DNA of 43,371 bases, taken from positions 1-43,371 of the IMG/VR virus record IMGVR_UViG_3300017747_002445; one strand, written 5' to 3'. The first letter of the stretch is position 1. Every line of letters begins with the position of its first letter. Shown here in pieces: positions 5,138 through 34,181 of this stretch. The stretch is from a virus. Its lineage: Duplodnaviria > Caudoviricetes. The notes beneath the pieces were generated by a model that saw nothing but the letters and a program-made list of their open reading frames with translations, was not told the DNA's origin and did no database searches. Made by a program: the position numbers and the translations under genes.

Positions 5138-7534
5138 ATGATATTGCCACAGTTGGTCGGTAGCGTGTTGTTCCCTAGCGACAACATACCCGAAAGCGAG
5201 AAGTCGAAGCCTGAGTTTGGTTTACGTTGCGCCAGAGCGCTGTATACTCGTTTTTGCGCCGGTGGAACTTATTTTACATACACGCAGCTCCCAGAGATGC
5301 AAGAGACCCGAAACTACGGGGCCGGCAATCAGTCTCAGGAAAAATACAAGAACTGGTTTACCAATGGGTCTCCAATCGGCTCCAAGGGCATAACACAGGG
5401 AGAGGCTTCCTCAACCACCAAGGGAATGAGCAAAGCTCAGAGAAAGGCGATGGCTAATATTAGCTATGATATTTTCTCACCTATGAGAAAGCTATCTAAC
5501 GTGTTGCTTTCTGTTTTGTCTGACAACGATTATAAGGTTCAGTGTCAATCACTTGACCAAAGAATAGTAAAGAAAAAAGCAGACTCTAAATACGATACGT
5601 ATTCTAAGTCAAAATACATAAATCCACTGCTGTCAAAAATAGGCAGACCAACACACAGCTTGCCTTTTGAGGTCACGGACCCCACAATGTTGGACATGGC
5701 TGATCGACTTGGTTTTTTCAAAACAAAATACGAGGTTGCTTTAGAGAAACTGGCGGAGGCTGGTTTTAGAGCGTCAAACTGGGCTGGCCAAAGAATGGAC
5801 TTCAACAGGGACGCTATTGACTTTCATTTTCGCGCAGCTAAAATATACAACGACCCAATTACAGGGCAAGTAAAGGTTCAGTACGTTGATCCAGCCAGAA
5901 TGGTTATGCTTTGGAACGAAGACAACCAAGAGGAGCCTGTAGCAATTGGTCACATTGAAGCGGAGACTATTCAGTCGATGTATAGCAAGCTAATAGAGGC
6001 CGGATTTAGTGACGACCAAATTCAGGCGATGGCTAAGTCTTACGTGCCTTATCAAACTAACATCTCTACCATTCCTCAGTGGGCATTTGAACGCAAGGAT
6101 TCGACCACCAACCGTTGGGTGTGGATGGACTTCAAGGTTTACGTGCTGAAGTTTGAGTATTTATCTACAGACTATAAGCAGTACGTAGAGCGCACTAACA
6201 AGCAAGGATACACAACTTATCTACGCAATAATAAGCCGGTAGAAGAAAAGAAAAAGAATCCAAACGAAAACTACGACGAGGTAAGTTGTAACTACTGGTA
6301 TGAGGGTTCTTACATCATCTCAGGTACAGGCCAGGATCGCATCTACGAATGGAAGAAGAAGCCAAACCAGATGCAGAAGGGCTTATCTCCAATGAGTTCG
6401 TATGTAATCCACCGAATCAACGGTCAATCTCCTACACGCAGCGTGAAGGGGTTGCTTGATGATTTGATGTTTGCGGTATTGAAGTTGCGTGCGGCGGTAT
6501 GGGCTGCTGCTCCAAAAGGATATAGAATTGATGTGGGCGAAGCCGCCAACATCAAGATTGGAGGTGTAGAGTACGACCTGTTCGACCTCATGCACATCCA
6601 CCGTCAAAACGGTATTCAGATTGTCGCCACCAAGTTTAACGCGGCAACCGGTAAGTACGTATCTCAGCCATTGGCTGAAATGGACAACGGTTTAGGTCCA
6701 CAGGGTCAAGAGTGGCTTGCTCAAATTGCAAACCTACAAATGATGATTAAGGATTTGATGGGCATCCCAGACGCGATGGCCGCTAGTCCGGATCAGTCAG
6801 CTGAAAGATTGGTTGGTGTAATAGAGCAGGACTTTGTTGCGGGAAACCACGCGAACTGGCCTCTTCGAGAATCTGAGCGTCAGTTCAAGCAGAAAATAGG
6901 TGAGCGTATCATCCATCAGGCCCGAATAGACATAGAGTTTGACCCTAAGATTAAAGAGTTTTACAAAAGCATCATAGGTCAGCACATGATAAATGCGCTA
7001 GACGAAATAGAGGGCTTGTCACTTGACCAGCTGGCTATTTCTTGCAAGGTGTTGCCGAACGAAAAAGAAAAGGGATCCATTCTCCAGCGTGCAATACAAA
7101 TGTCTCAGATACCAACAAAAGATGGTTCTGTTCTCTTGAGTCCTTCAAGCGTAGAGCGTGTAGCCCAATTGTTGCGTAACGGAGATGTCGATGAAGCATT
7201 GTGGTTTATGGCTACAGAAGAAACGATTGCCCGTAAGCGCGAACAGGAGAATGCTCAGATGATGATGCAGCAAACCATCCAGGGTCAGCAGCAATCCGCT
7301 CTTATGACCGAGGAGGCTAAACGCAAGACCATGATGCAGAAAATGCAGATGGATATAGCCAAGCATAGAGAAATGGCCAATATGGACATGGTTAAGGAGC
7401 AAGAGATTCAAAGAATTAAGGCAGACTCAAACTACCAGGTTCAGTTATTGAAAGGAAAACAAGTTCTGGATCAGATAACGCTTGAGGCTACTTTAGAGGC
7501 GGAAATGGGAAATGAAATAACAGGAATAGTATAA
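5138..7534 (+). CDS. Portal protein
   Basis: 798 aa after TerL. FPSDNIPESEK start, VQYVDPARMV, DLMGIPDAM, and a Q/M-rich coiled-coil C-terminus typical of podovirus and crAss-like portals. Confidence 0.88.
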   Translation: MILPQLVGSVLFPSDNIPESEKSKPEFGLRCARALYTRFCAGGTYFTYTQLPEMQETRNYGAGNQSQEKYKNWFTNGSPIGSKGITQGEASSTTKGMSKAQRKAMANISYDIFSPMRKLSNVLLSVLSDNDYKVQCQSLDQRIVKKKADSKYDTYSKSKYINPLLSKIGRPTHSLPFEVTDPTMLDMADRLGFFKTKYEVALEKLAEAGFRASNWAGQRMDFNRDAIDFHFRAAKIYNDPITGQVKVQYVDPARMVMLWNEDNQEEPVAIGHIEAETIQSMYSKLIEAGFSDDQIQAMAKSYVPYQTNISTIPQWAFERKDSTTNRWVWMDFKVYVLKFEYLSTDYKQYVERTNKQGYTTYLRNNKPVEEKKKNPNENYDEVSCNYWYEGSYIISGTGQDRIYEWKKKPNQMQKGLSPMSSYVIHRINGQSPTRSVKGLLDDLMFAVLKLRAAVWAAAPKGYRIDVGEAANIKIGGVEYDLFDLMHIHRQNGIQIVATKFNAATGKYVSQPLAEMDNGLGPQGQEWLAQIANLQMMIKDLMGIPDAMAASPDQSAERLVGVIEQDFVAGNHANWPLRESERQFKQKIGERIIHQARIDIEFDPKIKEFYKSIIGQHMINALDEIEGLSLDQLAISCKVLPNEKEKGSILQRAIQMSQIPTKDGSVLLSPSSVERVAQLLRNGDVDEALWFMATEETIARKREQENAQMMMQQTIQGQQQSALMTEEAKRKTMMQKMQMDIAKHREMANMDMVKEQEIQRIKADSNYQVQLLKGKQVLDQITLEATLEAEMGNEITGIV

Positions 7535-28832: not shown

Positions 28833-29324
28833 ATGAAACCAAATACGTTAGATCAAGCAGTAGTCAATTTGATGTTGCCTCGTCTTGAGGATGAGTTAAA
28901 CGCCTTTTATTTTTATCGAGCCGCCAGCAACTGGTGTCAAGGCGTTGGTTTCTTCAAGGCGGGTGAATTTTTCGCTAATGAGTCTAATGACGAGCTGGAA
29001 CACGCCAAGAAGATTGAGAAGTACTTGGTAGACTGGAACGTGGATCCGGCATTGCCATCAATACCAAAGCCACCCATCAAGTTCACTGGTCTGCTTGATG
29101 TTATCGAAAAGGCGTACAGAATCGAATACGAATTGTACGAAGCATACGAAGACACGTCAATGGCTCTGTTCAACATGGATCTGTGCGTGTTTGATTTTTT
29201 CCAAGAGTTCAGAACTTTGCAAAAGAATGCTGTTGCTGAGTATAGCGACAAGTTGAATATGCTTGAGGGTGTAACACCCGCTGGCAAGTTGGAAATGCTT
29301 CTGTTGGAGAAAAAATTGTTCTAA
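28833..29324 (+). CDS. Ferritin-family protein
   Basis: E21, Y28, E54, H57, E98 and Q130 match the ferroxidase-centre spacing of non-haem ferritin. Has the LPSIPKP loop. 163 aa. Confidence 0.9.
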   Translation: MKPNTLDQAVVNLMLPRLEDELNAFYFYRAASNWCQGVGFFKAGEFFANESNDELEHAKKIEKYLVDWNVDPALPSIPKPPIKFTGLLDVIEKAYRIEYELYEAYEDTSMALFNMDLCVFDFFQEFRTLQKNAVAEYSDKLNMLEGVTPAGKLEMLLLEKKLF

Positions 29325-32300: not shown

Positions 32301-33031
32301 TGTCAATGCTTTACGATTACGGCATGACCTCTCAGGCTGAGGGACAACCTCGCATGACTCCTTACGGTGAAGAATGGTCATGGATGGAAAGAGCAAAGGA
32401 GTCGGTTACTCCTATGGTTTACAATATGCTTAGTGAGGTTCATGAGGAGCAACCTGGTCATATAGAAGCCTTCCTTATGCCACTTGGTTATTTGGGTATG
32501 GGTGTTCAAACATACCAACCAAAAAGACGAGATGTTAACCGATACAAGAATGTGGAGACCAAGGAATTCATGAAGATGTTCAAGCCTTCAGGGGTTTCTA
32601 TGATCAAGTCGGAAGAGTTCATGGGTGTACTGGACAAAGAGCAGATGCTTGAGATGAATACGCTGTATCAAGACAAAGCGGAGATGTTGCTTGATCAATA
32701 CGCTAAGATAGTTCCTGATGACTTGAGTGAAATCAGGGTAAGCGCTGAACGTCGCAGGATAACTTACCCTGAACGTCAAGAGGCCATCGCCCTTTTGCGT
32801 GATCAAAAGATGCCAGAGACTGAGGAGAATATCAAGAAGATTGCCCTAGAGCTAGAACGCAAGAGTAAGATTGGTTTTAAGATAGATGAGTTCGCCAGCA
32901 AAGCAAAAGATGCAGCCATAGAAGAATACCTTATGTCAAAAGGTAAAGAAGTGCCTAAACCATACATAGGTGCTATGAAAAGGTACGAAAAAAGGCTGAA
33001 ATACTACACAGACAAAGCCCTTGAAAAGTAA
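29324..33031 (+). CDS. Large ejected protein: coiled coils plus a C-terminal helical/hydrophobic domain (LPD38-like, tentative)
   Basis: 1235 aa. INTFSGR...FFSPR...DPLSSYFGQIRLGNT...KLHP...TPYGE pattern seen at the C-termini of large phage virion proteins. Confidence 0.6.
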   Translation: MAKKKGPCKLTVKGKGDTKPREMTFEEYIAMLHDGGFEDLVNQGAIDPDELRGDNPFGPEAKAETAEPPMPPDVPQSPEDKQQSNEEERSTRTLIKRATDDREALKAKVEQYGLDRKVENRNDAKELAQAFIEDVGFNDAEYAAATMLTGAAKSYVYAELIDALEVGLSNAKTPEEIDSILSKQAELLHIWDTQIADAAREIGALASIYRDSLFGYKADVKIREYKKASGGYISPEMEAKFRAYEQQIKDLNAKLKEAERKAAQEREDKLMANIATSVSTEKKKAKTFTDKAKQVADNFRKLKGKPIQFRDANGNPIDIQRMGLSFDDIIELGAKAIEATGKIADGIAAVMEKLAEQEWFSSLSTVDQEAVRSQVEGMLSETTTGDIKIPKGMIKVMVEMGNNTIDSLTDAIMAQLQEQYPNATRRDFRDAITGYGKEVSKTRSDIDREIAVMKRIGAKMSQLEDLKLGIITETNPVTKTQKQEEEKNLDREIKDLFKELGVTGEKKLDQAKKNVNRTIQDLQKRIDDGQYAPNPKEKQYTSDAELDALNDEKKALQDQLKELQDQVGYTEEKKLNQAKKNIEKRIKELEEKLASRDFTKKEKQPAYTADDEIRDLRARRQELQDEVDIEIFKEKLKQRGWKGTFADYAKDIFNVTRNAMATLDLSFVLVQGKLISGGILHPVTAFRSALQAAKQMFSESNARQWNTFIRSQEYYDEMKKAGLSLTEYDAKVEAQEELMLTGPILNALWAMAVSPSRIVSKEAYEAAKRLNPMNAFSRAQVAYLNTFRILRYRELADKLKAEGKSINTDLQSYKNVADVINTFSGRSGLGKIDQNPMLSKALAYSFFSPRNWASILKTSSPIALFWAYKLRDTGSSRTKMFSVAQKTALFDFMGAMGSTAAIVAMAAMRLNDDDDDDSEVVFDPLSSYFGQIRLGNTYVDPWAGRMQTIVFTSRFITEAMYRGGTTGPLGVDNRPTRAVLLWEYMSRKLHPSLSMLYDYGMTSQAEGQPRMTPYGEEWSWMERAKESVTPMVYNMLSEVHEEQPGHIEAFLMPLGYLGMGVQTYQPKRRDVNRYKNVETKEFMKMFKPSGVSMIKSEEFMGVLDKEQMLEMNTLYQDKAEMLLDQYAKIVPDDLSEIRVSAERRRITYPERQEAIALLRDQKMPETEENIKKIALELERKSKIGFKIDEFASKAKDAAIEEYLMSKGKEVPKPYIGAMKRYEKRLKYYTDKALEK
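30823..31215 (+). repeat. Two-copy 67-aa coiled-coil repeat within the 1235-aa protein
   Basis: GVTGEKKLDQAKKN...YTSDAEL versus GYTEEKKLNQAKKN...YTADDEI, with a 201-nt period. Confidence 0.8.
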
Positions 33032-33044
33032 ATTTGTGACTCTA

Positions 33045-33260
33045 ATGCAACACGATATCAATCATACAGAGATGACGGATCAGGGTTACGTAGACGGAGC
33101 GGCTTCAGTTTTATTGACAACATTTGCCGCAGTGTTGTCCTGGCAGGAACAAGCCGAATGGTTTTTCCGAATCTCTTCTCTGCTGCTTGCTTGCACGGTA
33201 TCTATCGTTGTCCTTTACGGTCACCATAGAAAGTCCAAGTCAAAGAAGTCAACTAAGTAA
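33045..33260 (+). CDS. Small two-TM membrane protein (holin-like)
   Basis: Two hydrophobic segments and a basic tail RKSKSKKSTK. TAAATTTG at 33029-33036 upstream. Confidence 0.6.
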   Translation: MQHDINHTEMTDQGYVDGAASVLLTTFAAVLSWQEQAEWFFRISSLLLACTVSIVVLYGHHRKSKSKKSTK

Positions 33261-33289
33261 TTTCTCCCTTCTGTAATTGTATACCTTCT

Positions 33290-33365
33290 AAAAACACAGA
33301 GGGCGGTGATCAGGCCGCCCTCAAAGTTCTCGTCTCCCGACTGCACTTGGTGTGCGCGAACTTGC
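33290..33365 (-). ncRNA. Candidate small RNA: three-way junction plus terminator
   Basis: AAGTTC/GAACTT closes GCAC-ACCAA-GTGC and GTC-GGGA-GAC, followed by a GAGGGCGG/CCGCCCTC hairpin and TGTGTTTTT. No ATG. Confidence 0.65.
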
Positions 33366-33369
33366 GGTG

Positions 33370-33400
33370 CAAATATATGACATTTATTATTTAATGCAAA
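33370..33400 (-). promoter_or_regulatory. Consensus Bacteroidota promoter (leftward)
   Basis: TTTG(33400-33397)-N19-TATATTTG(33377-33370). Confidence 0.8.
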
Positions 33401-33404
33401 ATAA

Positions 33405-33436
33405 TTTGCACAATCCAATGTGCAATTGTAAATTTG
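33405..33436 (+). promoter_or_regulatory. Consensus Bacteroidota promoter (rightward) with an operator-like palindrome
   Basis: TTTG(33405-33408)-N20-TAAATTTG(33429-33436). TTGCACA-N6-TGTGCAA at 33406-33425. Confidence 0.8.
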
Positions 33437-33440
33437 CTCC

Positions 33441-33512
33441 GGTTACTGGTAATACATAGTGTTTAAGTGTGTAGTTTTCCCTGGGCAAAGGCCTGGGGAT
33501 TTTTTTATATTT
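33441..33512 (+). ncRNA. Candidate ~70-nt GU-rich small RNA or attenuated leader
   Basis: Runs from the promoter to the TCCCTGGGC-AAAG-GCCTGGGGA hairpin (two G-U pairs) followed by T7. Confidence 0.55.
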
Positions 33513-33530: not shown

Positions 33531-34181
33531 ATGATTGAATTGAAACTAGCGGATCCAACCCCGCATGAATTAAGTGAATATAGAGTGCTAATTAACGAAC
33601 TGAAAGAGAAGTTTCCTGATGCCTCTATATTGGTTGAAAGGGGTGTTGGAGACTACGCTATAAGCAATACGTCAATATTTATAGACGATGATAAAAGGAC
33701 TAACTGGCATTCCGCGATTTACCCATCAGTTCCCAACCGGGGGACAGCCCAAATCAAGGCGGATATTCTGTCCCTTACCTTCGCTATGCGTGAACTTGGG
33801 TTTGATGTCAAGTTTCTGGACAGCGATCCAATCATTCGTGAAAAGGTTTCGATAACTCGTGGTAAGCTCAATTCTTGTGTATCTCTTCGTCAAATGGTGG
33901 AACTCCTGGAGGAGGCGAATCACGAAAAAATCGACGAAGTAAAAGTAATGATAGAGAACAAACGCAAGAACGGCGGTCGTCCTAGCAAGAAGTCTGTGAT
34001 TGAATTTATCTTTTCTGGCGTACGTGAAGAGAAGCGGATGCAGCCTGTTCGGACCGGACCAGAGTGGGCGCGTGTGAAGATGGAATGGCGTGATAGATTT
34101 ACCTCTTCTAAGTATGCGAAAATGTACAAAAGTCTCGATGAATTTTGTACCTTCGCCACAGAAGAAGAGTGTAAATTATGA
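33531..34181 (+). CDS. Hypothetical protein (216 aa)
   Basis: ATG 33531 preferred over GTG 33459, which lies inside the RNA/terminator. TATATTTG at 33506-33513. ATGA overlap with the fibre gene. Confidence 0.7.
   Translation: MIELKLADPTPHELSEYRVLINELKEKFPDASILVERGVGDYAISNTSIFIDDDKRTNWHSAIYPSVPNRGTAQIKADILSLTFAMRELGFDVKFLDSDPIIREKVSITRGKLNSCVSLRQMVELLEEANHEKIDEVKVMIENKRKNGGRPSKKSVIEFIFSGVREEKRMQPVRTGPEWARVKMEWRDRFTSSKYAKMYKSLDEFCTFATEEECKL

Follow-up and report, generated by a model that had tools for sequence, protein, structure and literature searches.

The window, an entire virus record of 43,371 bases, carries on its minus strand a predicted gene for a small structured RNA. Comparison with related phages indicates that the core of this RNA is under purifying selection, and the RNA apparently belongs to an undescribed, new family of small RNAs, found in one phage clade and of a kind already known. 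We tentatively favor, at slightly less than an even chance, the reading that it is an accessory trans-acting RNA which presents a GGGA hairpin to a protein.

A stand-alone structured phage RNA gene had been proposed at this place in an earlier note, and our analysis supports it, as the gene has promoter and terminator signals of its own, a conserved core and no Rfam match. The promoter, stems, GGGA loop and terminator described there are all present on the minus strand where the note had placed them. The RNA had been called a three-way junction of about 75 nt; 75 nt is the length of the whole predicted RNA with its terminator, whereas the junction itself covers 40 nt. A divergent promoter, the 216-aa neighbor and a 12-bp complementarity to the mRNA of this neighbor were missing from that description. 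The parts of the RNA gene are as follows.

33370-33400, minus strand: Bacteroidota sigma-A-type promoter, with TTTG at -33, a 19-nt spacer and the -7 box TATATTTG
33291-33365, minus strand: predicted small RNA of 75 nt, +1 at 33365, with a jump in conservation at +1
33324-33363, minus strand: folded core of 40 nt, made of the P1 closing stem, an optional P2 and P3
33363-33358/33329-33324, minus strand: P1 closing stem
33343-33355, minus strand: P2 hairpin of 3-8 bp with a variable loop, missing from two distant types
33332-33341, minus strand: P3 hairpin with a GGGA tetraloop, invariant family-wide
33290-33322, minus strand: intrinsic terminator, an 8-bp G+C hairpin (33322-33299) and a T-rich tail (33298-33290)

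On the minus strand, TTTG occupies 33400-33397 and is followed by 19 nt and by TATATTTG at 33377-33370. The TAnnTTTG box lies at -12 to -5 relative to +1 (PMC9723704), which places +1 at 33365 and gives an RNA of 75 nt; the predicted 3' end, at about 33291, falls within the T run. The pattern TTTG-N18-22-TAnnTTTG has 4 copies in the window, where 1.24 are expected, and at least 4 copies occurred in 4 of 100 shuffles. Two of the 4 copies stand back to back, at 33400-33370 (minus strand) and 33405-33436 (plus strand).

The late gene block of the window encodes a terminase, a portal, virion proteins and three very large proteins; a 2441-aa protein of this block is one that we infer to be a tail fiber. 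A Ferritin/Dps-like gene (28833-29324, plus strand; Pfam PF00210, E 3e-17) lies between two very large virion-type genes. Searched against phage records, the window terminase gave 87 matches, all below 60% identity (23-26% among the matches listed), of which 68 belong to phages of Flavobacterium, 15 of Cellulophaga, 2 of Tenacibaculum and 1 of Maribacter, with 1 unassigned. Because these are mostly Flavobacterium and Cellulophaga phages, the host is presumably a member of the Bacteroidota, and the RNA-bearing phages likely infect freshwater Bacteroidota. The habitat evidence consists of only two lake metatranscriptome runs from one study, whose contigs match the genes flanking the RNA. These contigs span 32900-33017 and 33024-33269; the RNA lies outside both, and they are uninformative on its transcription.

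Conservation and loss of the RNA gene

An initial pattern scan gave 17 viral loci, in all of which the genes are in the same order. Loci were refetched through the 216-aa neighbor, which avoids selection on the RNA, and 23 viral and 38 metagenome loci were obtained. The window's own record and L069, L075, L076 and L077, whose upstream DNA was not usable, were left out; the 56 remaining loci and the window make 44 distinct alleles, of which 38 are close and 6 distant. The RNA is present in 32 of the 38 close alleles and in 5 of the 6 distant ones.

Among the 32 RNA-bearing close alleles, pairwise identity is 1.000 in the -7 box, 0.543 in the 4 bases before +1, 1.000 and 0.997 in the two halves of the core, 0.987 in the terminator and 0.618 in the 20 bases past the tail. 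The rise from 54% to 100% falls exactly at the predicted +1, and high identity ends at the terminator tail. Four-fold sites of the neighbor gene show 0.659 identity, against 0.997-1.000 in the RNA core. The P2 loop has 13 different sequences among the 32 alleles. Stem and loop sequences, beyond the pairing itself, are also kept among L071-L073, whose neighbor proteins are about 47% identical. A single copy is present in G003 and in each of 5 further records. In most of the alleles that were inspected, the spacer behind the terminator (33262-33290, minus strand) also keeps a second GGGA-containing motif.

The 6 remaining close alleles lack the -7 box, the RNA, the terminator and the spacer. A remnant of the -33 element and the membrane gene are still present in them, a pattern that suggests deletion. 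They form two supported groups on the tree of the neighbor gene, and one of them sits in a 100% complete record of 66.8 kb in which no match to the model was found. In L070 the deletion junction lies on a 6-base repeat flanking the unit (window 33258-33395), which suggests that the unit was lost there by short-homology recombination. In total, the 216-aa gene is kept without the RNA in 7 of the 44 alleles. These natural RNA-less phages provide a ready comparison.

Fold of the RNA and search for known families

Folded as a single sequence, the 46-nt core is no more stable than shuffles (z -0.83). In the minimum-energy fold of the full RNA, P1 is open and its 3' strand is paired with the tail instead; the pairing probability of P1 is 0.34 in the full RNA and 0.00-0.67 across 10 variants. 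It is the comparison with relatives, not single-sequence folding, that sets this RNA apart from chance.

The homologue search with covariation analysis suggested in the earlier note found both a conserved core and compensatory changes. In a MAFFT alignment of 18 chosen variants, where kinship inflates the counts and P1 is misregistered in the distant rows, 91.1% of cells are paired against 40-57% in slid controls, and both-sided changes occur in 7 of 21 pairs (0 of 500 shuffles). Three of these changes fall in P2 (3/4 of its pairs), 1 in P3 and 3 in the terminator, and the covariation comes from only four independent clades. In P3, 100% of cells are paired, with a single compensatory change from U-A to C-G. 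Parsed in register, P1 has 6, 5, 5 and 4 pairs across the four clades, with differing sequences. P3 closes GGGA in every clade and the G-Y-C/GGGA/G-R-C hairpin is kept in distant phages, an invariance that rests partly on searches requiring GGGA; the protein-led searches did not require it.

P2 is missing in L066 and L068, two distant phage types, and the three-way junction is therefore optional. The idea of the junction as the conserved unit was thus not borne out: P1 and P3 are kept with compensatory changes, but P2 is lost in these two types. As the alignments stand, the conserved unit is the closing stem plus the GGGA hairpin, and the third helix is an add-on. The terminator is swapped for unrelated hairpins in L066, L068 and L071, so that the four clades carry four unrelated terminators.

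The RNA falls outside the families described in Rfam 15, which was the check proposed for its novelty. At the gathering threshold there were 0 matches in the window and 0 in 10 related loci, and at E up to 10 only weak unrelated matches were obtained. The Rfam models include CRISPR repeat and tracrRNA families. ARAGORN did not detect the RNA as a tRNA or tmRNA. Hammerhead, sarcin-ricin loop, cobalamin and glutamine riboswitches, CsrA sites and CRISPR repeats were considered and dropped, as they had no Rfam support.

Loose viral scans gave 17, 23 and 82 matches, of which the real ones all belong to this phage family and the rest lie mostly in reading frames. L083 and L087 fit the regular expression but are antisense within an ORF. 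No DNA match to the RNA was found in annotated phage records, and no copy outside this phage family in the sampled viral scans and bacterial genomes, where sensitivity is imperfect. A pattern scan of genome contigs gave 13 matches, none with the core, P2-less types being outside the reach of the pattern. A model search of 151 Bacteroidota genomes, with 28 candidates scored per genome, gave matches in 2 genomes at E<=0.05, neither convincing. The promoter-plus-core pattern was found in 0 of 401 genomes and the 216-aa profile in 0 of 61. The sampled bacterial genomes yielded no host RNA for this RNA to mimic, and the ESM Atlas gave no usable match.

Our literature search found no paper on this RNA and none on small RNAs of Bacteroidota phages; the sections consulted of one review (PMC12197685) do not mention Bacteroidota hosts. 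The RNA motifs are absent from 4 supplements of Fremin et al. 2023 (PMC10690425), 5 other files of which may list them.

Candidate partners and rival explanations

The plus strand around the RNA contains the following features.

33045-33260, plus strand: gene of a 71-aa small membrane protein, convergent with the RNA
33405-33436, plus strand: divergent sigma-A-type promoter (promoter-pattern match)
33441-33505, plus strand: predicted leader or short RNA with a terminator-like hairpin at its end, ahead of the 216-aa gene
33531-34181, plus strand: gene of the 216-aa protein, divergent from the RNA, candidate partner or target
33688-33855, plus strand: 55-codon ORF with a net charge of +8, overprinted on the 216-aa gene in its +1 frame
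33787-33798, plus strand: 12-nt site complementary to RNA nt 2-13, inside both frames, with one G-U

The core sequence and fold are selected, the terminator is exchangeable, P2 is optional and there is no family-wide target, which argues for a protein reading the GGGA hairpin. The freedom of the terminator and P2 to vary fits a protein-read surface better than a pairing seed, and distant kin have kept the hairpin but not the 5' pairing site. In our favored reading, the host sigma-A polymerase would transcribe the dispensable phage gene into the 75-nt RNA, probably from infection onward given the host-type promoter. The RNA would act in trans as a folded ligand, an invariant GGGA-capped hairpin on its closing stem, and a putative partner protein would bind this hairpin. 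We give about equal weight to a host RNA-binding or defense protein titrated by the RNA and to the 216-aa protein. A protein-decoy or anti-defense role, as put forward in the earlier note, may apply. The partner could prove to be a host protein of defense or regulation, or else a novel RNA-binding protein of the phage. The RNA itself is compact, strongly selected and naturally deletable, and its invariant surface is defined.

The 216-aa protein has no Pfam match; it has 123 database relatives at E<=0.001, and the relatives listed are also without Pfam domains. Its structural model has a mean pLDDT of 85.9, a pTM of 0.45 and a helical C-terminal part. The predicted N-terminal domain (residues 9-94) aligns with RAD52 over 78 residues (Z 8.4, rmsd 2.4) and with dsRBDs (Z 7.5), families marked by an alpha-beta-beta-beta-alpha fold. 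Foldseek returned no PDB match to the model at E<=0.001, and its viral matches were mostly weak ones of Erf/Sak/Rad52 type. The modeled N-terminal match is middling and speaks to fold, not function; the arrangement is common, and DNA annealing would be as likely as RNA binding.

Ahead of this gene, the leader hairpin is possibly an attenuator. The hairpin keeps a similar loop in the distant L066, L071 and L075. Pairing of the RNA with the plus-strand leader was not conserved on inspection.

In all 36 full-length close alleles the overprinted ORF begins with ATG or GTG and runs on without a stop, while the host-frame residue at its start varies. Silent changes that would make a +1-frame stop are used at 0 of 8 sites inside the ORF versus 28 of 38 outside (Fisher p 1.7e-4, for a region picked after looking), and the ORF is apparently selected within the close clade. 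Distant kin lack it, and a database search gave no homologue. At the C-terminus of the peptide the hydrophobic moment is 0.48, no higher than in N-terminal windows. The 12-nt site lies about 100 nt inside this ORF. The 7-mer TACCTTC has 3 of its 5 plus-strand copies in the window (33282, 33776 and 34148) within 870 bases. The copy at 34148 is a -7-box variant at the 3' end of the 216-aa gene and 30 bases ahead of the next one; even distant kin keep it.

That the RNA instead base-pairs with the 216-aa mRNA, through nt 2-13 at 33787-33798, and damps expression of the neighbor is unlikely, though it is the main rival reading. The RNA could act on the 216-aa gene, on the cationic peptide of the overprinted ORF or on an internal transcript whose predicted start is 33788. 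The duplex is the best of 4318 windows on both strands, and also the best in G003, G409 and G410; with shuffled sequences, a helix this long in the flanking genes arose for 10 of 2000 seeds and 43 of 4000 cores. The sole variable target base alternates between C and U opposite G, the 5' end of the RNA is often free in folding models, and a -7-box variant (33776-33783, plus strand) precedes the site by 4 nt, a spacing identical to that of the RNA's own promoter. Divergent antitoxin layouts are known as well, in tisB/istR-1 and shoB/ohsC (PMC4147584). However, the close genomes count as one evolutionary event and the test is post hoc, and with opening costs the site ranks only about tenth against 863 background windows. 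It falls outside the top four in G408, and no such site exists in the distant G406 and G407; in L071 the site is elsewhere and is not kept in L072, L075 and L077. The divergent antitoxins described in PMC4147584 pair in 5' UTRs, not in coding regions. All 6 RNA-less alleles have an intact site and one RNA-bearing allele has a broken one, so the overprinted ORF explains the conservation of the site. Pairing also cannot explain the hairpin kept by distant clades. The 12-bp complementarity nevertheless looks like a real lead and may represent a second, clade-specific role. We set aside a pairing between the GGGAGA loop and a further site that lies upstream of the seed site, since it is perfect in only 18 of 38 alleles.

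We consider improbable a scheme in which the dsRBD/Rad52-fold neighbor would bind the GGGA RNA and anneal its 5' end to the neighbor's own mRNA, controlling the overprinted cationic peptide. If true, the phage would encode an RNA chaperone and sRNA pair, a three-part module without a described counterpart.

There is likewise only a small chance that the RNA acts in cis as an antisense RNA of the lambda OOP or RatA type, overlapping the 3' end of the 71-aa membrane-gene transcript and triggering its decay. The layout is convergent and the 71-aa product, which has no Pfam or PHROG match, is small and hydrophobic with a basic tail. The plus-strand hairpin lacks a U tract, which makes read-through overlap plausible, and the TxpA/RatA overlap is about 75 nt (PMC4147584). 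Yet a cis overlap needs no conserved sequence or structure, and the core is invariant. L071-L073 keep the RNA beside unrelated small genes, and the membrane gene is kept in the 6 of 38 close alleles, one a complete genome, that lack the RNA. This last result also argues against an antitoxin role, one of the functions put forward in the earlier note, toward the 71-aa gene; we regard such a role as unlikely.

Slightly less probable still is base pairing with a host transcript. The near-invariant sequence would suit a conserved target and the promoter is of host type, but most of the invariant bases belong to stems that show compensatory changes. Of 301 Bacteroidota genomes, which may not include the host, 86 contain the P3 14-mer with at most 1 mismatch; by inspection, its reversed control is about as frequent. 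It is very improbable that no RNA is made and that the region between the two operons is a conserved operator or hairpin at the DNA level: the lake metatranscriptome contigs do not cover the RNA and the junction alone folds like shuffles, but conservation begins exactly at the predicted +1 and stops at the terminator tail, G-U-tolerant and compensatory changes are present, and four unrelated terminators follow the core.

Comparison with known systems

The same phages appear to carry a second undescribed RNA. In L217, from the relative G003, a second stand-alone RNA gene (6982-7120, plus strand) has a promoter, a long hairpin and a terminator; homologues occur in G406, G408 and G410, and it is not present in the window. 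The hairpin loop and the terminator loop are complementary over about 9 nt although the sequences differ in all four genomes, and a covarying loop-loop pseudoknot is a strong lead. This second RNA had no Rfam match at the gathering score.

Like the RNA described here, lambda OOP RNA and TxpA/RatA involve a short stand-alone RNA that converges on the 3' end of its neighbor (PMC12197685, PMC4147584). Unlike them, the phage RNA does not overlap the coding region, its folded core is conserved whatever the neighbor, and the neighbor outlives loss of the RNA. IstR-1/tisB, OhsC/shoB, Orz/zor and AgrB/dinQ likewise combine a divergent sRNA with short complementarity to a neighbor mRNA carrying a small basic ORF. 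As in the tisB/istR-1 layout, the sRNA is here complementary to the divergent neighbor mRNA, over 12 bp in the close clade. The tisB site is in the toxin 5' UTR (PMC4147584), whereas here the site lies within a coding region and is clade-limited. In contrast to divergent type I antitoxins, the predicted peptide is overprinted and the RNA is dispensable.

The candidate viral RNAs of Fremin et al. 2023 (PMC10690425) also come from IMG/VR data with covariation evidence. The RNA anti-CRISPRs Racr (PMC10651486) and rAcrIIA1 (bioRxiv 10.64898/2026.06.03.729762) are accessory intergenic phage RNAs with their own promoter. Unlike them, our RNA has no Rfam match, and no array or RNA matched the model in the genomes searched, among which the host is perhaps not included. 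RNA anti-CRISPRs act on a protein through their fold, as we propose for the lake-phage RNA.
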